A stretch of DNA of 64,000 nucleotides. Origin: Candidatus Campbellbacteria bacterium (GTDB lineage Bacteria; Patescibacteriota; Minisyncoccia; Phycocordibacterales; JABAAK01). Shown here piece by piece: positions 16,449-64,000 of this stretch (its first letter is position 1; the number at the start of each line of letters is the position of its first letter). The stretch covers positions 11,546 through 75,545 of the forward strand of contig JAPPQH010000010.1 in the NCBI GenBank assembly GCA_028817035.1, given 5' to 3'. A program made the position numbers and the translations under genes. Below the pieces are notes generated by a model that made no database searches, was not told the DNA's origin, and saw nothing but the letters and a program-made list of their open reading frames with translations.

Positions 16449-16611
16449 GTAAGTCTGACCGCAACGAGCCTGCGAGTTGCGTCAAGCGTTCAAATAGTGA
16501 AGTAATGGGTTGGAGGGCGTGAAACTTGACCTTTGCGAGCTTGCGAGCAAAATCAAGCGAGTGGCGAAGCCACGAGCGATAATAAATAAGGTGTGCCGAG
16601 AGTGGGTCTCG
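16449..16611. repeat. diverged tandem copy of the tRNA-Phe 3'-flank, ending in a 19-nt duplicate of the tRNA-Phe 3' end (gtgccgagagtgggtctcg, 16593-16611)
   Basis: taagtctgaccgcaacgagcctgcgagttgcgtcaagcg at 16449-16487 and 16704-16742; gtgccgagagtgggtctcg at 16593-16611 and 16787-16805 (the latter inside tRNA-Phe). Confidence 0.6.
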
Positions 16612-17979: not shown

Positions 17980-18148
17980 AAATGCTGATTAATGTGATAT
18001 AATTAGGAAATAATAAATGTATTAAGAATACTATGGAAAAAATGAGAAAAATAATAGCGACAATAATAGCGATATTGCTCGCGATAATAATGATAGCTTC
18101 TTTATTCCTGCCGTTCTTCTATTAATATTTGCAGTATTTATAGGGGGG

Positions 18149-18177
18149 TTGACAAGATTGGGGTTGTTTGATATACT
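18149..18177 (+). promoter_or_regulatory. sigma70-type promoter TTGACA-N17-TATACT for first REC/zinc-finger gene
   Basis: Direct reading 18149-18154 TTGACA, 18172-18177 TATACT; the whole promoter/5'UTR block is duplicated at 19164-19330. Confidence 0.55.
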
Positions 18178-18315
18178 CAAAAATAGTACTGCTCTTTCAC
18201 AAAAAAGGAGGTAAAAGGCAGACAAAGAATTTATGTTTTGAAAGGGTGCCCTTAGGTGCCCAAAATGCCACTCGCAACCGTGAGTGGTCCCACAAACCAA
18301 CAAAAGGAGAACGGT

Positions 18316-19089
18316 ATGCAAAAGCAAACCAACCCTGCCCTGGGTAAAGAGGGCACCACCCCCCTTCGCGTTCTCGTCATTGATGACAGCGAACGCCACC
18401 AAAAGAGTGCGCGACTCACCCTCGCGGACCACGATCTCACGATCGTTGGGACTTACGAGGAGGCAGAGAAGATCCTGCTTCCTGCCATCTATAAGGCAGG
18501 TGGCCCGAAGGTGGAGGAAGAGATGGAGCGTCTCGGTTTTAGCACTGACGTTAAGTCATACAAGGACTGGGAAGAGTTCCGCAAGGTCCAGAAAGAAATC
18601 GCCAAGAAGCTCTTCCCGACCTTTGACGCAGTCCTCTGCGACCTGCTTATGCCAGTGGTGCATATGTCGGTTTTGAGGGAGCAGAAGAATGAGGAGTATG
18701 CCGGGGAGGAAATGCCCTTCGGCTTCAGCCTCGCTTTCCAGGCAGCTAAGCATGGTGCGAAGTATGTGGCGGTTGTGACTGACACCGGTCATCACGACCA
18801 CCCTGCATCCGCAATGCTTGACCCCCTAAGTTTTAAGGTTCAATTCACAATTACCGGCTTCCATCGCCATCGCGGTGTAACAACTGGCGACAGATATGGT
18901 GCTGCTGTAGGTTTCTACAACAGCCCAAAGATGGTGGAAGTGGAAGGGGTATGCCATGCCTGCGACGGCACTGGACAACGGCATGACAGCGAATACAAGT
19001 GCCCGACCTGCAGAGGGTCTGGCAGCGCTCGGGGTAAGGACTGGGGGTGTATCCTCAAGAAACTCCTTGCCGCTGGCGAGACTGCCTGA
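18316..19089 (+). CDS. receiver (REC)-like domain protein with C-terminal DnaJ-type CxxCxGxG zinc-finger pair, paralog 1
   Basis: ATG at 18316 with AAGGAG RBS (ORF track starts at an upstream GTG, 18256). RVLVIDDSE beta1-like, VLCDLLMP phospho-acceptor-like Asp, His-rich TDTGHHDHP, C-terminal CHACDGTG...CPTCRGSGSARG; ~55 percent GC. Confidence 0.6.
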   Translation: MQKQTNPALGKEGTTPLRVLVIDDSERHQKSARLTLADHDLTIVGTYEEAEKILLPAIYKAGGPKVEEEMERLGFSTDVKSYKDWEEFRKVQKEIAKKLFPTFDAVLCDLLMPVVHMSVLREQKNEEYAGEEMPFGFSLAFQAAKHGAKYVAVVTDTGHHDHPASAMLDPLSFKVQFTITGFHRHRGVTTGDRYGAAVGFYNSPKMVEVEGVCHACDGTGQRHDSEYKCPTCRGSGSARGKDWGCILKKLLAAGETA

Positions 19090-19111
19090 CACCTCCGACG
19101 ACGACCACACG

Positions 19112-19153
19112 GCCGCTCAAGAGCTTTTGCTTGCGAGCGGTCGTTTTTATTTT
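19112..19153 (+). terminator. Rho-independent terminator after paralog 1
   Basis: gccgctc...gagcggtc hairpin followed by gtttttatttt. Confidence 0.6.
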
Positions 19154-19163
19154 AATCTTGGGC

Positions 19164-19193
19164 TTGACAAGATTGGGGGTCTTGTGCTACAAT
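19164..19193 (+). promoter_or_regulatory. sigma70-type promoter TTGACA-N18-TACAAT for paralog 2
   Basis: 19164-19169 TTGACA, 19188-19193 TACAAT; preceded by the same ttttattttaatcttggg junction as the paralog-3 promoter. Confidence 0.55.
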
Positions 19194-19331
19194 TAAAAAT
19201 AGTACTGCTCTTTCACAAAAAAGGAGGTAAAAGGCAGACAAAGAATTTATGTTTTGAAAGGGTGCCCTTAGGTGCCCAAAATGCCACTCGCAACCGTGAG
19301 TGGTCCCACAAACCAACAAAAGGAGAACGGT

Positions 19332-20117
19332 ATGCAAAAGCAAACCAACCCTGCCCTGGGTAAAGAGGGCACCACCCCCCTTCGCGTTCTCGTCATTGAT
19401 GACAGCGAACGCCACCAAAAGAGCGCCCGACTCACCCTCGCGGACCACGATCTCACAATCATCGAGACGCATCAGGAGGCGCTTGTGACCTTGAATCGGG
19501 AAGATTTTCCCAGGCTTTATAGCAAAAAGGTGAAGGAAGAGATGGAGTGTCTCGAGCTTAACCCCGATTCATATGGGAGTCCGAGTGAGTATCTTAGGGC
19601 ATGTGACAAGGCAAGGGAGGAGATTGTTAACAAGCACTTTCCACCCTTTGCCTTTGATGTCGTCCTCTGCGATCTGTTCATGAAGCCAGCGGCAAATATA
19701 GTGAACACCATGGATGGTAGAGAAAGCTTGAGGTGGAGGAAGGAGAAGTTTGCCCGAGAGGAAATGCCGGCTGGTTTCGGTCTTGTCCTCATGGCAGTGG
19801 ACAACCCCTTTCATAGTGTGAAGTATGCGGCGGTTGTGACTGATACCAATCACCATGACCACCCTGTTTCTGCTATGCTTGACTATGTAACCCATAGTCA
19901 AGGAGAGAAACCTCGCTTCAAAATCAACGGAGCGACGGTAGGTTTCTACAACAGCCCAGAGATGGTGGAAGTGGAAGGGGTATGCCATGCCTGCGAAGGT
20001 ACTGGGCAAATTGACAGCGACTACGATTGCGAGACCTGCAGAGGGTCTGGCAACGCCCGGGGTAAGGACTGGGGACTCGTCCTCAAGGACCTCCTTGCCG
20101 CTGGCGAGACTGCCTAA
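19332..20117 (+). CDS. receiver (REC)-like domain protein with C-terminal DnaJ-type CxxCxGxG zinc-finger pair, paralog 2
   Basis: First ~40 codons and 5'UTR identical to paralog 1, then diverges; VVLCDLFMKP, TDTNHHDHP, CHACEGTGQ...CETCRGSGNARG. Confidence 0.6.
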   Translation: MQKQTNPALGKEGTTPLRVLVIDDSERHQKSARLTLADHDLTIIETHQEALVTLNREDFPRLYSKKVKEEMECLELNPDSYGSPSEYLRACDKAREEIVNKHFPPFAFDVVLCDLFMKPAANIVNTMDGRESLRWRKEKFAREEMPAGFGLVLMAVDNPFHSVKYAAVVTDTNHHDHPVSAMLDYVTHSQGEKPRFKINGATVGFYNSPEMVEVEGVCHACEGTGQIDSDYDCETCRGSGNARGKDWGLVLKDLLAAGETA

Positions 20118-20135
20118 CGCCTCCGACGACCACAC

Positions 20136-20178
20136 GACCGCTCAAAAGCTATGGCTTGCGAGCGGTCGTTTTTATTTT
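20136..20178 (+). terminator. Rho-independent terminator after paralog 2
   Basis: gaccgctc-N16-gagcggtc then gtttttatttt. Confidence 0.65.
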
Positions 20179-20188
20179 AATCTTGGGG

Positions 20189-20217
20189 TTGACATAAGAG
20201 ATTTAATATATTATCCT
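20189..20217 (+). promoter_or_regulatory. putative promoter (TTGACA, weaker -10) for third REC-like gene
   Basis: ggggTTGACAtaagagatttaatatattatcc; AAGGAGG RBS 8 nt before ATG 20253. Confidence 0.4.
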
Positions 20218-45470: not shown

Positions 45471-45749
45471 CTACTCGTTTCGTGGGGGTCGCTCCGACTC
45501 ATCAAGTCGAAAACTTACATAAGCATTGTTTTTTCTTCCGACTGCCCTCAAAAGTGTTCTTATTGCATCTCTGGTTTTTCCGGACCTTCCTATAATTTTA
45601 CCTCTCTCCGCTGGGTCAACAGAAAGCGTTAGCAATACCCCCTTAGGGTCTACTCTTCTATCCACTTTAACGCTGTCTGTATTATCAACGAGTGCCTTAA
45701 CTATGAATTCCAAAAAATCCTGATCTAAATTTGCTGAACTATTATCCAT
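45471..45749 (-). CDS. KH-domain RNA-binding protein (UPF0109/YlqC-like)
   Basis: 92 aa; KH GxxG loop IIGRSGKTRDAIR; conserved neighbour of rpsP/trmD. Confidence 0.8.
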   Translation of the reverse strand: MDNSSANLDQDFLEFIVKALVDNTDSVKVDRRVDPKGVLLTLSVDPAERGKIIGRSGKTRDAIRTLLRAVGRKNNAYVSFRLDESERPPRNE

Positions 45750-45890
45750 ACTAATCTCCTCTAAATTACCTTGTTCTTAAAAACGACTCAAAGAAAATCT
45801 TCCTGTCGTATAGATTAATTCTATATTATCCCTCCCATTTTGGTCAAGTATCCTCAGGGCTCGCATTCATCCACCCCATTTGTGCCCTAT

Positions 45891-45934
45891 TTTAATTAAA
45901 AAACCACCCACAGCGACAAGGTCGCGTGGGTGGT
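45891..45934 (-). terminator. bidirectional-looking terminator hairpin after paralog A
   Basis: aaccacccac-agcgacaaggtcgc-gtgggtggtt perfect stem, T-run on minus strand (A-run 45893-45900 on plus). Confidence 0.7.
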
Positions 45935-45981
45935 TGAAAACTTGGGTGGCACATATGATTTCAATAGCGTCTGCCAGGGGC

Positions 45982-46674
45982 TTAAAGGACTTGGTTGACA
46001 TTCCGAGAAAGGTTTTCAACACCTTCCAAAGATATCCCACTTGAAGACTCTCTAGCATACTCTTTGCCCAATCTCTCGATACACCACTCTTTGACTTCCC
46101 TGAAGTGTTCTGGACGACAATCCTCGTTATCCAAGAGTTTGCCAATTTTCATGAGTGCTGCAAGAACATTGCGATCATTTCGCGCATTGCCAAGATACCA
46201 TTGGTATCCGCGTATGCCGTGGTGTAGGCGATATCTTCCAAACCACCTGTCCTTACCATCGAGAACATCATTGTAAGCATTGCCGATGATGTAACCACCA
46301 AAACCCATTCTCATCAAAAAACAGATGTCATCATGACAATAATATGGGTTGTTAAGGTAGTGTCCAACAACTAAAAAGTCCAGTTTGGCAGATCTTACAA
46401 TACAAGCTGTTTTTCTTGGGTCAAGAGCGACTGAAACAATGTCGTCACCTTTGGGTGGGACGTATTTCTTCGCCATAGGGTCAACAGGTACACGGTACAC
46501 TACAAAGAAGGTAGCTTCGTATACTTCGCCTTCTTCCCACGCCACCATGTTCTTCATATTCTTCTCCAACAAATTTTTGGTTTTTTTCCACAAACTTCTA
46601 GTGAAAGATAGCGATTCGTCATCACAAAGAAACCCTACCCTGAATTCCTTCTTAGGCTTTTTCTCAGTAGCCAT
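45982..46674 (-). CDS. hypothetical protein, triplicated family copy A (possible Rossmann-like fold)
   Basis: 230 aa; shares FRVGFLCDDESLSF, LDFLVVGHYLNNPYYCHDDICFLMRMGFGGYIIGNAY with copy B (~85 percent) and more distantly with copy C. Confidence 0.6.
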   Translation of the reverse strand: MATEKKPKKEFRVGFLCDDESLSFTRSLWKKTKNLLEKNMKNMVAWEEGEVYEATFFVVYRVPVDPMAKKYVPPKGDDIVSVALDPRKTACIVRSAKLDFLVVGHYLNNPYYCHDDICFLMRMGFGGYIIGNAYNDVLDGKDRWFGRYRLHHGIRGYQWYLGNARNDRNVLAALMKIGKLLDNEDCRPEHFREVKEWCIERLGKEYARESSSGISLEGVENLSRNVNQVL

Positions 46675-46813
46675 AAGATTTTCCTCCTCTTTCCTTTACT
46701 TCCACAAAGTGAAACCTGTTTTCGGGATGCGACAAGCATCCCTTTCAAAGAACACGCGAGGACTTTCGTCCCCACATTGCTTTTATTATATTACCAAAAC
46801 AAGCATTTTGTCA
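46675..46813 (-). promoter_or_regulatory. promoter (TTGACA-N18-TATAAT) plus conserved structured 5' leader of copy A
   Basis: Minus strand: TTGACA (rc 46808-46813), TATAAT (rc 46784-46789), then ~105-nt leader with GGAC-GAAA-GUCC tetraloop hairpin, GGGAUGC-UUGUC-GCAUCCC hairpin, UUCAC-UUU-GUGGA hairpin, AGGAGG RBS; leader identical in all three copies. Confidence 0.6.
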
Positions 46814-46860
46814 AACCACTCAGTTCTTCTATTTCATTATCGCTCTGTGGTTTCATTGCT

Positions 46861-46904
46861 TTAATTAAAAAACCACCCACGGCGACAAGGTCGCGTGGGT
46901 GGTT
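46861..46904 (-). terminator. terminator hairpin after paralog B
   Basis: aaccacccacggcgacaaggtcgcgtgggtggtt preceded by A-run on plus strand. Confidence 0.7.
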
Positions 46905-46939
46905 GAAAACTTGGGTGGCACATATGCCAACCCGAGATG

Positions 46940-47647
46940 TCAATAGGGTCTGTCAGGGGCATCAAGGACTTGGACGACATTCCGAGAAAAGTTTTCAGCA
47001 CCTTCCAAAGATATCTCACCTGAAGACTCTCTAACATACTCTTTGCCCAATCTCTTGATACACCACTCTTTGACTTCCCCGAAGTGTTCTGGATAACTAG
47101 GATTGTTATCCAAAAGTTTGCCAATTTTCATGAGTGCTGCAAGAACATTGCAATCTTTACGCGCATTGCCAAGATACCAATTGTGTCCTCGCCATTTCCC
47201 AAACCATCCGTTTTGTTCATCGGGAACATCATCGTAAGCATTGCCGATGATGTAACCACCAAAACCCATTTGCATCAAAAAACAGATGTCATCATGACAA
47301 TAATATGGGTTGTTAAGGTAGTGTCCAGCAACCAAAAAGTCCAGTTTGGCAGCTCTTACAACACAAGACGCTTTTCTTTTGTCTTCGTAAGCAGTGGCTG
47401 AAACGATTGAAACAATGTCGTCACCTTTGGGTGGGATGTATTTCTTCGTCTGGTCAACAGGTACACGGTACACTACAAAGAAGGTAGCTTCGTATACTTC
47501 GCCTTCTTCCCACGCCACCATGTTCTTCATATTCTTCTCCAACAAATTTTTGGTTTTTTTCCACAAACTTCTAGTGAAAGATAGCGATTCGTCATCACAA
47601 AGAAACCCTACCCTGAATTCCTTCTTAGGCTTTTTCTCAGTAGCCAT
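46940..47647 (-). CDS. hypothetical protein, triplicated family copy B
   Basis: 235 aa; paralog of 45982..46674. Confidence 0.6.
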   Translation of the reverse strand: MATEKKPKKEFRVGFLCDDESLSFTRSLWKKTKNLLEKNMKNMVAWEEGEVYEATFFVVYRVPVDQTKKYIPPKGDDIVSIVSATAYEDKRKASCVVRAAKLDFLVAGHYLNNPYYCHDDICFLMQMGFGGYIIGNAYDDVPDEQNGWFGKWRGHNWYLGNARKDCNVLAALMKIGKLLDNNPSYPEHFGEVKEWCIKRLGKEYVRESSGEISLEGAENFSRNVVQVLDAPDRPY

Positions 47648-47786
47648 AAGATTTTCCTCCTCTTTCCTTTACTTCCACAAAGTGAAACCTGTTTTCGGGA
47701 TGCGACAAGCATCCCTTTCAAAGAACACGCGAGGACTTTCGTCCCCACATTGCTTTTATTATATTACCAAAACAAGCATTTTGTCA
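47648..47786 (-). promoter_or_regulatory. promoter plus conserved structured 5' leader of copy B
   Basis: Same leader sequence as copy A; minus strand TTGACAaaatgcttgttttggtaaTATAAT upstream. Confidence 0.6.
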
Positions 47787-47837
47787 AACCACTCAGTTCT
47801 TCTATTTCATTATCGCTCGGCAGTTTCATTTTCATTA

Positions 47838-47878
47838 ATTAAAAAACCACCCACGACGACAAAGTCGCGTGGGTGGTT
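47838..47878 (-). terminator. terminator hairpin after paralog C
   Basis: aaccacccacgacgacaaagtcgcgtgggtggtt with flanking A-run on plus strand. Confidence 0.7.
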
Positions 47879-47888
47879 TGGGTCAACC

Positions 47889-48740
47889 TCAACCTGTGCG
47901 TTCCATTATGCTAAGAACACTACCCTGTGTGCGAAAGTCAAGGGCAGAGAGAATATCTCTACCTAAAAATACAAGCTTTTCACAACATTCTTCGTTTGGG
48001 TCTTCACCCCAGTATTCAGGTTTTTCTTTACCAACAAAATCTTGGATAAACCCAAGAATGCAGTCGGCATCTATTTTCTGTAAGCAATCACGAGCGCTCA
48101 AAGAATGGCGTTCATCCACTCCGTGATTAACGATTCCCATGGATCGTATAAACAACTTAAGAAGATGAGGATTTTCGCTCATATCGCCAAGGTAGTTCGC
48201 TACACCATAGGGTGGTCTAACGGGAAGCCTGCCCAAACCCACGGTCCCCTTGAGATCATAACCTCCCTCGTTGCCGATGAAATAACAACCTCCACATCCA
48301 CCATGTAACAAAGAAACGTAGAAATCATGACCACTAAATTTCCCACCACCACTAAGATAGTTCCCATCTCCAAGATAGGGGTTGATGATGAGAAAATCTG
48401 GTCTGACAGTTTTTACAAGATCTTTTGTTTCTTTCTTGCCATTGCGGTAGAACAACAATATATTGTCGTCTTCGCGTTCGGGTATAGGACTGCCATCACA
48501 AGACACAACATAGAAATCTTTGTAGATGTTGTATGCATCCCATTTCTCCTTGCCCTTTCTCAGGAGTTCTCTCGTTTTCCTCCAAAAATCTTGTGTTTGC
48601 GGTAACTCACTGAGATGACAGAGAAACGCAATCCTTACTGTTCTCTCAATCCTCCCATTGACTTTTGCTTCTGTGCTCATTTCTTTTCCTCCTCTTTCCT
48701 TTACTTCCACAAAGTGAAACCTGTTTTCGGGATGCGACAA
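47889..48740 (-). CDS. hypothetical protein, triplicated family copy C (divergent, Gly/Cys-rich insert)
   Basis: 283 aa; conserved blocks VRIAFLCHLSE, PDFLIINPYLGDGNY...GHDFYVSLLHGGCGGCYFIGNEGG align with copies A/B. Confidence 0.55.
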   Translation of the reverse strand: MSHPENRFHFVEVKERGGKEMSTEAKVNGRIERTVRIAFLCHLSELPQTQDFWRKTRELLRKGKEKWDAYNIYKDFYVVSCDGSPIPEREDDNILLFYRNGKKETKDLVKTVRPDFLIINPYLGDGNYLSGGGKFSGHDFYVSLLHGGCGGCYFIGNEGGYDLKGTVGLGRLPVRPPYGVANYLGDMSENPHLLKLFIRSMGIVNHGVDERHSLSARDCLQKIDADCILGFIQDFVGKEKPEYWGEDPNEECCEKLVFLGRDILSALDFRTQGSVLSIMERTG

Positions 48741-48819
48741 GCATCCCTTTCAAAGAACACGCGAGGACTTTCGTCCCCACATTGCTTTTATTATATCTCA
48801 CTAACCAAAGTTTTGTCAA
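48741..48819 (-). promoter_or_regulatory. promoter (TTGACA rc 48814-48819, TATAAT rc 48790-48795) plus conserved leader of copy C, immediately downstream of rpsP
   Basis: Leader identical to copies A/B although coding sequence is strongly diverged. Confidence 0.6.
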
Positions 48820-48853
48820 ACCCGCGCTCTGCGACCTATTACTTCCCCCTTCT

Positions 48854-49444
48854 TTATTGTTCTTTCTTTTCTTCGGTTGGCGCTTCACCCTCTGTTTTCT
48901 GTTCTGCTGTTGCTTCCTTATTTTCCACCACCTCTTCTTTTTGTTCTGGCTTCTGCTCTGTCGTCTCCTCTGGCTTCTGCTCTGTCGCCTCCTCTACCTT
49001 TTGTTCTGCCTGTGGTTGTTCGGTTGGTGCTTTTTCCTCGCCAACTTTTTCCTCTCCACTTTTTTGTTCAGCTGACACTTCACCCTCTGCTTTTTGAGTG
49101 GCTACTTCTTCTGTCTTATTTTCATTGGCAACACCAGCCTCTTGTTTTTCTTCGTTAACTTCTTTCTTTATAGGTGTTTTCTTTGGTAGGACATTTTTCT
49201 TTTTTCCTTTGAGCATACCGTCTGCTACCAATATATTAAAAACTGTCTCAGACACTTCTGCACCGTTGTTCATCCAATGTTGTATTCTCTCCTTTTCTAT
49301 TGATTTGGTTTTTCTTATGCTGTCGTAAGTTCCCAACTTTTCTATATACTTTCCACTTTTAGGACCAACGCTGGAGTCCACAACAATAATACGATATGAA
49401 GGATTGTTTTTTCTTCCTGTTCTTTGTAATCTTATTTTAAGCAT
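48854..49444 (-). CDS. rpsP: 30S ribosomal protein S16 with long Lys/Glu-rich C-terminal extension
   Basis: 196 aa; MLKIRLQRTGRKNNPSYRIIVVDS N-terminal S16 domain (~80 aa) then low-complexity KE-rich tail. Confidence 0.85.
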   Translation of the reverse strand: MLKIRLQRTGRKNNPSYRIIVVDSSVGPKSGKYIEKLGTYDSIRKTKSIEKERIQHWMNNGAEVSETVFNILVADGMLKGKKKNVLPKKTPIKKEVNEEKQEAGVANENKTEEVATQKAEGEVSAEQKSGEEKVGEEKAPTEQPQAEQKVEEATEQKPEETTEQKPEQKEEVVENKEATAEQKTEGEAPTEEKKEQ

Positions 49445-61095: not shown

Positions 61096-63552
61096 CTATT
61101 TTTCTAACCTATGAATATGAATATTGGGATATTGCCTTTCGAGTTTATTAAATTCTTCATCACTCATATTTCGGCTAACAACTAGTCTTTCTAAATTATA
61201 AGGACGACGTGGTGGTGGAAATTCTTCTGCATTTGTGAGACCTTTGAGTTCAAGCCACCAAACACTCTCAGGTATCTTCAACCCTTCTGCAGTTTTGAGA
61301 CCGTTGAGAGAAAGCCTCTTCACACTCTCAGGCATCTTCAACCCTTCTGGGTTTGTGAGACCGTTGAGAGAAAGAATCTTCACACCCCCAGGTATATTCA
61401 ACCCTTCTGGGTTTGTGAGACCGTTGAGTTCAAGATGCTTCACACCCTCAGGTATATTCAACCCTTCTGGGTTTGTGAGACCGTTGAGTTCAAGATGCTT
61501 CACACCCTCAGGTATATTCAACCCTTCTGGGTTTGTGAGACCGTTGAGTTCAAGATGCTTCACACCCTCAGGTATCTTCAACCCTTCTGCAGTTTTGAGA
61601 CCGTTGAGATAAAGCTCCTCCACACCCTCAGGTATATTCAACCCTTCTGGGTTTGTGAGACCGTTGAGATAAAGCCACCTCACACCCTCAGGTATATTCA
61701 ACCTTTCTGGGTTTGTGAGACCGTTGAGAGAAAGACCCCTCACACCCTTAGGTATCTTCAACCCTTCTGGGTTTGTGAGACCGTCGAGAGAAAGAATCTT
61801 CATGCCCTCAGGTATATTCAACCCTTCTGGGTTTGTGAGACCGTTGAGAAAAAGTGCCATCACACCCTTAGGTATCTTCAACCCTTCTGCAGTTTTGAGA
61901 CCGTTGAAATCAAGTTCCAACACACCCTCAGGTATATTCAACCCTTCTGGGTTTGTGAGACCGTTGAGATGAAGATGCTGCACGCCCTCAGGTATATTCA
62001 ACCCTTCTGGGTTTGTGAGACCGTTGAGAGAAAGTGACCACACACCCTCAGGTATATTCAACCCTTCTGGGTTTGTGAGACCATTGAGTTCAAGATTCTC
62101 CACACCCTCAGGTAATGGCGGAATGTCTTTTATATTTGTGGTTGAAAGAATAATTATGTATTCACCCCCAACAACAATTGGAAATTTAGTTCCGCCGTTT
62201 CTTTTTAGTTCTGCTAATTCTTTATCTTCAATTAATAAATTCCCAAGGTGATACACGCATTTACCAGATAGGGCTTCTTCTTCCGAAGTGCTTATTTGAT
62301 CCTTTGGAACACCAAAGATATATGCAACATCTTCTATTTTATCTCTTCCTCTCAGTATTTCTTCTATCATCTCTTCACCTCCTAAGAAGTTGTGTATCTT
62401 GCCATCAATTTCATATAGAAAGCGTAGGTCTTCTTTTGATATTGATAGTGGGCTGTTGTGGATCTCTGTAACCCGTTTCATGTCCTCCGCTGCCTTGTTG
62501 TATCTCTCCGCTTCTTGTGGGTATTCCTCAAGCTTTTCTTTGAGGACAGGGAATATGTATTCATCTAATGTTTGCCCCTCTTCTATCCCGCTTATCTCGC
62601 GTATACCTTTCCCTCTAAACGCTATCGTCAATCTTGGGATAGTGGGGTCTCCTCTTTTATCATTGGAATAGTAGATAAGGGCATCTCCATTGTCTAAGTA
62701 CCCTTCGCAAGTATTGATAGAACCTTCTAAACACCAGCCAGTGTGATGTCCTTGAAGTGAATCAAACATTTCTTTTTCTTGTCCTTTTGTAAATCTTCTC
62801 CACTTACCATCAATCACCTCAAGATGCTCAGCACCTCTGTTTCTTTTCAATATCTCCATCCTTCTGATGTATGCCTTTACAAAGTTTTTGTTCTCTAAGT
62901 ATGTTCTAAATTCCTCATCTTCTGTTTCTATGTCCTTACCTTCCACTATCTTATTGAAATGCTCATATATTCCCGCAAGGGCTTGTTTGTTTAATGTTAG
63001 GAATGGTTTTGCTGTGTATTTTGTTCTTTTGTAGAATTGCTTCTCATTTACTTTGTATTCACCCACACGCAACACATTCTTTAGGGCAAGGAACTTAAAC
63101 CAAAGGGGATATGCGTCTGTCTCATGTGATGCAAAATACTCTATCCAATTGTAGAGACTATCCTCTTGGTCTCCTATCACCCTTTCTGCATATTCTTTCT
63201 TCAGTCTTGGAATCTCACTCTTTGTTATGTCCTCACCCCATGATATGTCCTTACCCCTATCTCTTTCTATTTTTAGATGATTATTAAATGCCTTAGATAT
63301 ATTCTCCTCTTTTATGATATGGTTTCTCTTCACCATCCTCCATATCGCCTCTACCCCTCTTTCCCTCTTTTGTTCGTCCTCCCTTTGCAACACTTGTGCA
63401 TAACGATCCAGAAATACCTTAATAATTTCTTCTGGCTTGTCTATCTTTTCACCAGTCCTTACCTCCTCCCTTTTTGCAGGTCCTCTAATCTTTTTGAATA
63501 AATGTTGGTCGGCACCTCCCAAGAACTCTGCACCCATCTTGTTTTCTTTCAT
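61096..63552 (-). CDS. leucine-rich-repeat protein (about 20 tandem 22-aa LNGLTNPEGLNIPEGVxxLxLNG repeats) with ~470-aa N-terminal domain of unknown function
   Basis: 818 aa; repeats encoded by near-identical 66-bp DNA units; no signal peptide seen; conserved C-terminal tail ERLVVSRNMSDEEFNKLERQYPNIHIHRLEK. Confidence 0.7.
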   Translation of the reverse strand: MKENKMGAEFLGGADQHLFKKIRGPAKREEVRTGEKIDKPEEIIKVFLDRYAQVLQREDEQKRERGVEAIWRMVKRNHIIKEENISKAFNNHLKIERDRGKDISWGEDITKSEIPRLKKEYAERVIGDQEDSLYNWIEYFASHETDAYPLWFKFLALKNVLRVGEYKVNEKQFYKRTKYTAKPFLTLNKQALAGIYEHFNKIVEGKDIETEDEEFRTYLENKNFVKAYIRRMEILKRNRGAEHLEVIDGKWRRFTKGQEKEMFDSLQGHHTGWCLEGSINTCEGYLDNGDALIYYSNDKRGDPTIPRLTIAFRGKGIREISGIEEGQTLDEYIFPVLKEKLEEYPQEAERYNKAAEDMKRVTEIHNSPLSISKEDLRFLYEIDGKIHNFLGGEEMIEEILRGRDKIEDVAYIFGVPKDQISTSEEEALSGKCVYHLGNLLIEDKELAELKRNGGTKFPIVVGGEYIIILSTTNIKDIPPLPEGVENLELNGLTNPEGLNIPEGVWSLSLNGLTNPEGLNIPEGVQHLHLNGLTNPEGLNIPEGVLELDFNGLKTAEGLKIPKGVMALFLNGLTNPEGLNIPEGMKILSLDGLTNPEGLKIPKGVRGLSLNGLTNPERLNIPEGVRWLYLNGLTNPEGLNIPEGVEELYLNGLKTAEGLKIPEGVKHLELNGLTNPEGLNIPEGVKHLELNGLTNPEGLNIPEGVKHLELNGLTNPEGLNIPGGVKILSLNGLTNPEGLKMPESVKRLSLNGLKTAEGLKIPESVWWLELKGLTNAEEFPPPRRPYNLERLVVSRNMSDEEFNKLERQYPNIHIHRLEK
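61235..62110. repeat. array of ~13 tandem 66-bp coding repeats (several copies 100 percent identical)
   Basis: e.g. cacaccctcaggtatattcaacccttctgggtttgtgagaccgttgagttcaagatgctt repeated back-to-back at 61440, 61506. Confidence 0.85.
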
Positions 63553-63654
63553 ATATTCTTATTATACCTTACTCAAAAGCGAGGAAGGGCAGGGGTCATG
63601 TGGTGGGGGTGTGAAACTGGGTTGATTGTGTAGGTGGTTATTCTTTTATTCTGG

Positions 63655-64000
63655 TTATCTCCGCTCAATTTCAATATGAGGATATTGCTCTTTGAGTTTA
63701 TTAACTTCTTCATCACTCATATGTTGGCTAACAGTTAGTCTTTCTAAATCATTAGGAAGTGGTGGAAATTCTTCTGCACTTGGGAGACCCTTGAGTTCAA
63801 GCCACACCACCCTCTCAGGCATATTCAACCCTTCTGGGTTTGTGAGACCGTTGAGAGAAAGATCCAGCACACTCTCAGGTATCTTCAACCCTTCTGGGTT
63901 TGTGAGACCGTTGAGTTCAAGATTCTGCACACCCTCAGGTATATTCAACCCTTCTGGGTTTGTGAGACCGTTGAGAGAAAGACACCTCACACCCTCAGGT
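63655..64000 (-). CDS. LRR protein paralog, C-terminal part (5' end beyond window)
   Basis: Same 22-aa repeats and C-terminal tail (ERLTVSQHMSDEEVNKLKEQYPHIEIERR) as 61096..63552. Confidence 0.65.
   Translation of the reverse strand, partial: PEGVRCLSLNGLTNPEGLNIPEGVQNLELNGLTNPEGLKIPESVLDLSLNGLTNPEGLNMPERVVWLELKGLPSAEEFPPLPNDLERLTVSQHMSDEEVNKLKEQYPHIEIERR

Follow-up and report, generated by a model that had tools for sequence, protein, structure and literature searches.

How can the 5′ leaders of three neighboring paralogs remain identical, base for base, when the coding sequence of one of them no longer aligns with the others as DNA? This question is raised by the region between rpsP and khpA in a Candidatus Campbellbacteria MAG, where three tandem cassettes (A, B, and C) lie on the minus strand. 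An earlier note on this DNA had proposed that the common leader is a candidate cis-regulatory RNA and that its retention implies selection or gene conversion acting on that RNA. In the following, "the window" refers to the whole stretch of DNA that was analysed, which comprises 64,000 nt.

Each cassette consists of its own promoter, a leader of ~105 nt, an orphan open reading frame (ORF), and its own intrinsic hairpin terminator (Table 1). The promoters match the consensus at 12 of 12 positions in each case (TTGACA, 18 nt, TATAAT) and are found directly 5′ of the identical sequence, and the terminators have the form AACCACCCACGCGAC...GUGGGUGGUUUUUU (~-25 kcal/mol, z -6). In this compact genome, of which ~91% is coding and where the intergenic gap has a median of 34 nt, the cassette spacers of 232–265 nt are outliers. 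No regulator gene is present inside or adjoining the A, B, and C cassettes. Regarding the coding sequences, codons 1–65 of gene B are the same DNA as those of gene A. For C, blastn aligns only the leader with A and B, and none of the coding DNA; the encoded proteins are distant paralogs. Protein C is 29% identical to protein A across 147 aa (E 4e-11) and, thus, is a true, although distant, paralog of it. The marked divergence of copy C described in the earlier note is therefore real, and in effect the synonymous sites between A and C are saturated (dS = 1.74).

Table 1. Positions of the features discussed in the text, numbered from the first letter of the window.
Feature	Position	Strand	Remarks
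rpsP	48854-49444	-	
KhpA-type KH gene	45471-45749	-	followed by trmD
Gene A	45982-46674	-	orphan protein of 230 aa
Gene B	46940-47647	-	235 aa; 83% identical to A
Gene C	47889-48680	-	263 aa counted from the ATG at 48680
Identical block, A	46679-46791	-	
Identical block, B	47652-47764	-	
Identical block, C	48684-48796	-	
5′ leader A	46675-46784	-	first base 3′ of the -10 box to last base before the ATG
5′ leader B	47648-47757	-	identical to A
5′ leader C	48681-48789	-	same as A and B within 48684-48796; last 3–4 nt before the ATG differ
Promoter, cassette A	46785-46814	-	TTGACA-18-TATAAT
Promoter, cassette B	47758-47787	-	12/12 consensus
Promoter, cassette C	48790-48819	-	-35 and -10 boxes as in A and B; spacer diverged
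Hairpin 1 (A copy)	46754-46777	-	10 bp including 3 G-U, GAAA tetraloop; followed by GUGUUCUUUG
Hairpin 2 motif (A copy)	46719-46749	-	UUUGAAA-GGGAUGC-uuguc-GCAUCCC-GAAAA
Putative hairpin 3	46700-46714	-	UUUCAC-uuu-GUGGAA; weak
Purine-rich tract	46679-46699	-	tandem SD-like elements (GUAAAGGAAAGAGGAGGAAAA)
Terminator hairpin A	45898-45937	-	-25 kcal/mol; followed by U6
Terminator hairpin B	46867-46906	-	
Terminator hairpin C	47841-47880	-	as in A and B except for loop, bulge, and one G-C to G-U change
D1 gene	18316-19089	+	CheY-like protein with zinc ribbon
D2 gene	19332-20117	+	CheY-like protein with zinc ribbon
D1 leader	18176-18315	+	layout as in A, B, and C; UUUGAAA-hairpin-AAAA at 18237-18265
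D2 leader	19192-19331	+	same sequence as D1 leader

The identical block spans 113 nt, from A-TATAAT, which contains the -10 box, to AGGAGGAAAA, and is 100% identical in A, B, and C. Consequently, the exact identity of the leader on three paralogs with divergent coding regions, as had been noted, holds. The range previously assigned to it in C (48741–48789) was too narrow, as the block extends over 48684–48796 there, and one part had been transcribed with a G missing (the true letters are GUGGGGAC, not GUGGGAC). Beyond the block, the flanks in C are ~40–50% identical to those in A and B. In effect, C has diverged almost to the random level in its coding sequence, in the DNA 5′ of the -35 box, and in what remains of the 18-nt promoter spacer. 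Two further details mark the borders. On the upstream side, 12 nt of the -35 region (GGTTTGACAAAA) are identical in the three cassettes. On the downstream side, where GGAGG sits 7–8 nt 5′ of the ATG, the 4–5 nt that separate the SD tract from the ATG are not the same in C as in A and B. Within the window, pieces of the leader are confined to these three sites, where chance alone would give 0, and no fourth copy exists in 73.5 kb of the genome (the window plus 9.5 kb beyond its start).

Repeats of this kind in a short-read MAG might have been collapsed or joined as chimeras, so that the identity of A, B, and C would be an artefact of assembly. Other assemblies do break at these repeats. Moreover, the ~370-nt identity of A and B described below rests on short-read assemblies that are unable to phase a repeat of that length, and the ENA copy of the contig and the window carry different bases at 46678 and 47651, the -4 positions of A and B, respectively; thus, the identity of these two copies may hide unphased variation. 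The C copy, however, is well anchored. In two k141 assemblies that were obtained independently from other samples (L018 and L019), rpsP, the leader, and gene C are covered without a break at 100% identity, and, since the block of 113 nt is shorter than k141 k-mers, this copy is flanked by spanned unique sequence on both sides. In addition, a Logan contig assembled with k=31 (L017) branches exactly 30 nt into the block, which is what would be expected of a real repeat at that k. Hence, the C copy is real, and an artefact is an extremely unlikely cause of the identity of the three copies.

How the identity is maintained is most directly seen in A and B. These copies are 100% identical over ~370 nt, a stretch that runs from the DNA upstream of the promoter, across the promoter and leader, and up to codon 65. 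Within these codons dS is 0, and after them it rises to 0.109. Past the tract, the comparison becomes a mosaic, with identities from 23 to 100% per 30-nt window and a dN/dS of ~1.25. Identity that includes synonymous sites and has abrupt borders inside otherwise diverged paralogs is the mark of gene conversion, and the A/B tract followed by the mosaic is a textbook example of it. Therefore, the alternative of selection or gene conversion in which the earlier note had framed the leader was the right one, and conversion is directly visible between A and B (~370 nt, with dS passing from 0 to 0.11). For C, saturation at synonymous sites together with zero changes in 113 nt indicates that simple slow drift does not account for the block. 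Furthermore, the saturated spacer between the kept -35 box and the block suggests that the module is old in C and was not freshly transplanted. Conversion between C and A/B can act only within the homology that remains, whose edges are selected elements, namely, the -10 box and the SD.

A second tandem family in the window, the D1/D2 pair at 18256–20117, which is unrelated to A, B, and C, has a similar pattern. Between D1 and D2, the -35 box is kept, the spacer and the -10 box have diverged, and then ~230 nt are 100% identical, through a leader of ~130 nt and into the coding sequence; the terminator is also conserved. Thus, homogenised 5′ ends recur among tandem paralogs in this genome. The terminators of A, B, and C are informative as well. 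They vary in the loop, in a bulge, and by one G-C to G-U change, whereas the leader is invariant. Loop changes and wobble pairs would be acceptable in a hairpin RNA, and for this reason ongoing homogenisation is a better explanation for the leader than selection alone.

Taken with the promoters directly upstream, these observations make it fairly probable that the cassettes carry a promoter and 5′ untranslated region (5′ UTR) expression module that is homogenised by gene conversion, with a constitutive 5′ stabiliser hairpin and a strong ribosome-binding site. In such a module, the identical block would result from concerted evolution, with gene conversion acting between the tandem copies, and purifying selection on the -10 box and the SD would anchor its edges. 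An RNA sensor that needs every base of the leader would not be required. Nevertheless, conversion alone leaves unexplained both the full length of the block and the coincidence of its edges with functional boundaries. Thus, the interior sequence is probably under some selection, and there is scope for a specific regulatory function.

As a whole, the leader folds with -36.4 kcal/mol (z -2.6), and the ensemble assigns a pair probability of ~1 to hairpins 1 and 2. Hairpin 1, AUGUGGGGAC-GAAA-GUCCUCGCGU, has -15.5 kcal/mol and a z of -4.8 when its folding is compared with that of shuffles. It corresponds to the GNRA-tetraloop hairpin of the earlier note and is longer than was described there (10 bp with a GAAA loop). 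Three of its pairs are G-U, so that it can form only in the RNA of the sense strand. The hairpin begins 8 nt past the -10 hexamer, that is, at +2 if transcription starts 7 nt past the hexamer. From this usual spacing, the transcription start is predicted to be 1–3 nt before the hairpin. Hairpin 2, GGGAUGC-UUGUC-GCAUCCC, is the 7-bp GC-rich hairpin reported before and is also well supported by folding (-12.7 kcal/mol, z -3.1). By contrast, the third hairpin that had been placed just before the Shine-Dalgarno is at chance level, as it folds no better than shuffles (-3.8 kcal/mol, z 0.07). A further proposal, that CCUC could pair with the GAGG of the ribosome-binding site, is disfavored: CCUC is held in hairpin 1 with a pair probability of ~1, so that this hairpin would need to be melted, and the SD is mostly unpaired. 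In the predicted ensemble, the probability that GGAGG is unpaired is 0.64 in the context of A and 0.82 in that of C.

Some additional contacts within the leader were considered. A GAAA tetraloop can be matched with an 11-nt receptor, and the pattern UAUGG-N14-CCUAAG was found; this candidate was rejected, as the pattern spans the start codon of A and of B, whereas C lacks it. Its two identical matches compare with 0.55 expected, two are reached by 9 of 100 shuffles, and the outer helix is weak. Long-range complementarity between the 5′ and 3′ parts of the leader amounts to short matches at chance level, which are different in A and C.

Could the leader, then, be a metabolite riboswitch, or another switch that senses a ligand or the temperature and controls the three genes? 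Its length (~105 nt) and structure do stand out against the median intergenic gap of 34 nt, and the z of -2.6 for the whole leader is in line with such a role. Its architecture, however, is that of three independent simple hairpins, with neither a multi-helix junction nor a supported pseudoknot. In the predicted ensemble, no competing fold occludes the SD and none forms a terminator/antiterminator pair. An Rfam scan of the whole window, which had been suggested as a check, gave no match at the gathering threshold in 45.8–49 kb, whether to riboswitches, T-boxes, r-protein leaders, or thermometers. With E up to 10, the best matches of the leader were ylbH (20.6 of the 50 bits needed), RAGATH-19 (18 of 85.6 bits), and the hsp17 thermometer (14.1 of 45 bits). 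Moreover, the downstream orphan genes offer no metabolic link, and the leader, whose three available copies are all alike, has no homologs in the collections searched in which covarying helices or a conserved signature of a ligand pocket could be seen. A switch of this kind is thus a very improbable explanation. The homogenised expression module is the simpler reading.

The searches for relatives of the cassettes were broad. With a word index, the A, B, and C proteins matched only themselves, and a HMMER profile run against 1.84 billion representatives recovered only the genes of the query genome. No family was found for these proteins in Pfam, NCBIfam, PADLOC, PHROGs, or a PDB profile search. 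A covariance model of the leader, run with filters off on the window and 13 kb of related DNA, found the three known copies only, and the next-best match reached 15.8 bits. The same strain, traced through its S16 homologs, is present in three other samples, where the sequence shows no variation. In the closest other species (L020, 90% nucleotide identity over rpoD-rpsP), no cassette follows rpsP. Hence, in the collections searched, neither the A, B, and C proteins nor the leader has a relative beyond this strain. Several apparent leads were discarded. An AlphaFold2 model built from an alignment of three sequences has a pLDDT of 51.7 and is unusable, so that its Foldseek matches in the PDB are meaningless. 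The 19-mer of hairpin 1 gave 11 chance matches in genome contigs from unrelated GC-rich genomes, three scans of viral contigs with pieces of the leader gave nothing or one chance palindrome, and the three matches to the hairpin-2 pattern in metagenome contigs have flanks without similarity.

Hairpin 1 is followed by GUGUUCUUUG, a combination that a loose terminator scan flags in all three copies, although the run of U is interrupted. This terminator-like flag counts against the stabiliser module. It could instead point to an attenuator, in which the translation of a leaderless ORF of 10 codons would melt the hairpin and, in this way, couple read-through to translation capacity. The sequence does contain a suitable ORF: an AUG at about +2, which is 8–10 nt past the -10 box, opens the frame MWGRKSSRVL, whose UGA stop codon lies inside UUUGAAAGGG, within the motif shared with the D leaders that is described below. 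The D leader also has AUGUUUUGA, which ends at the same position of the motif. Nevertheless, the U-tract is short as well as interrupted, and the AUG is buried in a stem of -15.5 kcal/mol, which is unfavorable for leaderless initiation. No alternative antiterminator fold is predicted, and, because all copies are identical, they provide no evidence of conservation for the ORF. Attenuation at hairpin 1 is, on these grounds, highly unlikely. As for hairpin 2, no U-tract follows it.

The motif just mentioned is found in the leaders of both families. The D1/D2 leader has a layout that resembles that of A, B, and C, in that a 5′-proximal stem-loop is followed by a GC hairpin, another hairpin, an A-rich tract, and finally the SD (z -3.0). 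Both contain an element of the form UUUGAAA-[7-bp stem]-[loop]-(G)AAAA. The stems, GGGAUGC/GCAUCCC in one family and GGGUGCC/GGUGCCC in the other, differ on both sides in 3 of 7 pairs, and pairing is kept; these changes were read directly from the sequence, as MAFFT shifted the short hairpin-2 motifs by one column. Since the stem of the D leaders needs G-U pairs, it works only as RNA. A descriptor of the element (TTTGAAA, a 7-bp stem of any sequence, a loop of 3–8 nt, at most 1 nt, and AAAA) matches only the five leaders of the two families in 128 kb of searched strand and gives 0 matches in 30 shuffles, and for a related pattern 0.03 matches are expected by chance; the motif was defined after both leaders had been seen, and these statistics are post hoc. 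As plain sequences, the leaders of the A and D families are not significantly similar, since 105 of 2000 shuffles attain their score of 21. At seven loci with D1 homologs, the upstream regions do not resemble either leader significantly apart from the -35 box, and the leaders of D-family homologs in other genomes do not carry the UUUGAAA-hairpin-AAAA motif.

These comparisons bear on a different reading of hairpin 2, in which the palindrome GGGATGC-N5-GCATCCC (about +38 to +56) would be a DNA operator for a dimeric repressor and the hairpin in the RNA would be incidental. The inverted repeat is perfect, requires no G-T pairs, lies just past a consensus promoter, and is the same in the three copies. 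Its counterpart in D1/D2, however, is not a palindrome in DNA, as it pairs only via G-U and, thus, as RNA. Besides, the cassettes neither contain nor adjoin a regulator gene, and an operator would account for only 19 of the 113 identical bases. A repressor site is, consequently, an improbable origin of the conserved hairpin.

It is easier to conceive of the leader as a cis-regulatory RNA that is recognized in trans, by an RNA-binding protein, a small RNA, or an RNase, through hairpin 2 and its flanks and perhaps hairpin 1. The three paralogs would then be co-regulated at the level of translation or decay, possibly along with D1 and D2. Such recognition could account for a block that is preserved along its full length and with sharp edges amid neutral surroundings that are saturated. 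The restriction of the descriptor to five leaders of two unrelated families, the three stem pairs changed on both sides with pairing retained, the D stem that pairs only as RNA, and the three-hairpin layout before the SD that is common to both leaders are all compatible with it. The same comparison also weakens the case, as the motif statistics are post hoc, the leaders as such are not significantly similar, the independent instances number only two, and the leaders of D-family homologs elsewhere do not have the motif. There is, in addition, no candidate for the binding factor, and the SD is free in the predicted ground state. A trans-acting factor is, for these reasons, a possible but doubtful explanation. 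A more specific form of this idea, which we regard as unlikely, is that UUUGAAA-hairpin-AAAA, placed between a 5′-terminal hairpin and a pre-SD hairpin, is a lineage-specific cis-regulatory element through which a protein or RNase co-regulates the tandemly amplified cassettes of this CPR symbiont, A, B, and C together with D1 and D2; the identity of the leaders would then reflect selection for a regulon signal in addition to conversion. The shared motif is a lead only. It suggests a specific recognition element, which would be more than a pure stabiliser model needs.

For the homogenised expression module, the parts of the leader can be assigned tentative roles. The GAAA-capped hairpin 1, at 1–3 nt from the predicted 5′ end, would guard the mRNA against decay that depends on the 5′ end. 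The exposed double SD-like purine tract (AAGGAA..GAGGAGG) would draw ribosomes strongly and also shield the 5′ region. A role in protein binding or processing is possible for hairpin 2 and its UUUGAAA and GAAAA flanks. Together with the consensus promoters and the purine tract, the stabilising role of hairpin 1 would be expected to lead to high expression.

If this reading is true, the cassettes represent a natural, self-contained unit of expression in a streamlined genome of the Patescibacteria. This unit, made up of a consensus promoter, a 5′ hairpin that stabilises, a strong ribosome-binding site, and a strong terminator, would be copied and held uniform through gene conversion while the proteins diverge fast. 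The module would also be a candidate genetic part for organisms for which almost no tools exist. The finding on the A, B, and C leaders opens no long-standing question, and it would serve as a warning that a leader found unchanged on several paralogs is not necessarily a riboswitch. The presence of a hairpin motif in the leaders of two unrelated families would be new to the RNA biology of the CPR if it were confirmed in more genomes. Two features merit follow-up, namely, the insertion of fast-evolving orphan cassettes in the rpsP-khpA-trmD cluster and the hairpin motif common to both families.

Several known systems resemble the locus in part. Among the Rfam families, the ylbH leader (RF00516) has a 5′ hairpin after an A-rich start, an AGGAG-type SD, and an AUG, as is the case here. 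These features, on which the match is based, are generic ones. By contrast with that family, which is located 5′ of methyltransferase genes of the ylbH/rsmD type in Firmicutes, the match reaches 20.6 rather than 50 bits, the middle of the model is unmatched, and the downstream gene is not ylbH/rsmD. Membership was ruled out, as the downstream orphans match no Pfam or NCBIfam family and the host belongs to the Campbellbacteria, not to the Firmicutes. The 5′ UTRs of the CspA family are long, structured, and conserved across species and paralogs; they adopt temperature-dependent folds and govern mRNA stability and translation. By analogy, a long structured 5′ UTR is kept here across several paralogs of one genome, although there is neither conservation across species nor any sign of alternative folds.

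With respect to function, the closest parallels are found among 5′ stabilisers. [quoted passage not shown] Known stabilisers include the E. coli ompA 5′ UTR, the B. subtilis aprE leader, and the cryIIIA STAB-SD (reviewed in PMC3997798). A stabiliser of the 5′-terminal type has its stem-loop within ~0–4 unpaired nt of the 5′ end of the transcript, and its removal shortens the half-life of the mRNA; hairpin 1 would fall within that distance if transcription began 7 nt past the -10 hexamer. Like these, the leader described here has a hairpin near the predicted 5′ end, an exposed SD-like purine tract, a length of ~100 nt, and a strong promoter; unlike them, its transcription start is a predicted one, and it has no sequence homology to any of the three.

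With respect to evolution, putative mobile promoters are upstream regions of 50–100 nt, at about -5 to -120, that are conserved before unrelated coding sequences (Matus-Garcia, Nijveen and van Passel 2012, PMC3488235). For instance, the conserved stretch in Treponema brennaborense reaches from position -5 or so to roughly -120, counted from the start codon (PMC3488235). They are defined by more than 50 nt of upstream sequence with at least 80% identity within one genome, and the three copies of the block have 113 nt at 100%. As in those regions, a conserved sequence of more than 50 nt, here from about -5 to -118, is reused before coding sequences that cannot be aligned as DNA. In contrast to them, the downstream genes are neither unrelated nor scattered, and instead are tandem distant paralogs (29%), which makes local gene conversion after duplication likely, rather than the mobilisation of a promoter. 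In effect, the perfect tracts with sharp edges (~370 nt in A/B and ~230 nt in D1/D2) are like those seen in the concerted evolution of tandem bacterial paralogs. The tract that C shares with A and B departs from the usual case in that it covers only non-coding expression signals, ends 4–5 nt before the ATG, and has flanks that are fully saturated. The locus thus belongs to a known kind of system, a promoter-leader module held in common by paralogs through concerted evolution.

The gene order rpsP-khpA-(rimM)-trmD is widely conserved. Here, it is broken by the three tandem orphan-gene cassettes A, B and C (45750-48853), whose GC content is slightly higher than that of their flanks (0.41-0.44 versus 0.34-0.41) and whose AT skew, unlike that of the flanks, is near zero. 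Of the other species found, the closest is represented by contig L020 (JGI 3300007112; 90% nucleotide identity over rpoD-rpsP), in which no cassette is present downstream of rpsP at positions 1760-1870; instead, an opposite-strand repeat-protein gene follows rpsP where the window has the cassettes. Several offset blastn matches link this gene to a large gene of the window with many internal repeats, and they reflect the 60-nt register of those repeats. In addition, a 59-nt non-coding element (GACCTTTGCGAGCYTGCGAGCAAAATCAAGCGAGTGGCGAAGCCACGAGCGATAA), which in the window lies within a gene-poor stretch of ~670 nt close to tRNA genes, is 96.6% identical to L020 1786-1844, although its genomic context differs between the two genomes.

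The S16 protein encoded by rpsP carries a C-terminal extension of ~100 aa that is rich in Glu and Lys. No terminator follows this gene in the window sequence, and the promoter of cassette C begins ~30 nt past its stop codon, so that, judging from the sequence, transcription from rpsP could possibly run on into cassette C.

Features discussed here, in window coordinates
Feature	Position	Strand	Remark
59-nt non-coding element	16528-16586		
D1/D2 region	18100-20200	+	second tandem paralog pair
D1	18316-19089	+	
D2	19332-20117	+	
UAUGG-N14-CCUAAG, A	46651-46675	-	
Short upstream ORF in leader	46745-46777	-	equivalents in B and C
UAUGG-N14-CCUAAG, B	47624-47648	-	
rpsP (ribosomal protein S16)	48854-49444	-	
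Large repeat-rich gene	61096-63996	-	818-aa ORF 61096-63552

Only two differences separate the window from the ENA version of the same contig (L012) across 20.8 kb. These are at 46678 and 47651, where the plus strand has G in L012 and A in the window, that is, C versus T on the minus strand, 4 nt 5′ of the ATG in both A and B. This suggests population or copy-specific variation masked by a 370-nt repeat that cannot be phased. Outside their converted 5′ part, genes A and B (45982-47647, minus strand) are separated by 47 non-synonymous and 10 synonymous changes, plus small indels. The resulting dN/dS of ~1.25 (dN 0.137, dS 0.109) indicates that, in these orphan proteins, selection on the C-terminal two-thirds is relaxed or diversifying.

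The leader shared by the cassettes contains a short upstream ORF (AUG UGG GGA CGA AAG UCC UCG CGU GUU CUU UGA) that starts at about +2. Its AUG is buried in hairpin 1, the GAAA-capped stem near the predicted 5′ end, and its terminal UGA falls within UUUGAAAGGG. Separately, the classical 11-nt GAAA-tetraloop receptor has both of its halves in UAUGG-N14-CCUAAG, a sequence that in A and B lies 3′ of hairpin 1 and folds into a small hairpin spanning the start codon. As a receptor, this candidate was rejected, since it is missing from C and is statistically not above chance (0.55 expected per window).

A second tandem pair, D1 and D2, encodes CheY-like proteins that are 57% identical; their N-terminus is receiver-like, and they contain a CxxCxGxG zinc ribbon. 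Their DNA is 100% identical over ~230 nt from just past the -10 box, covering a leader of ~130 nt and the first codons, and the terminators of the two genes are likewise conserved. The D leader has AUGUUUUGA (18233-18241, plus strand), terminating at the same motif position as the upstream ORF of A, B and C, and a UUUGAAA-hairpin-AAAA motif is common to both leaders.
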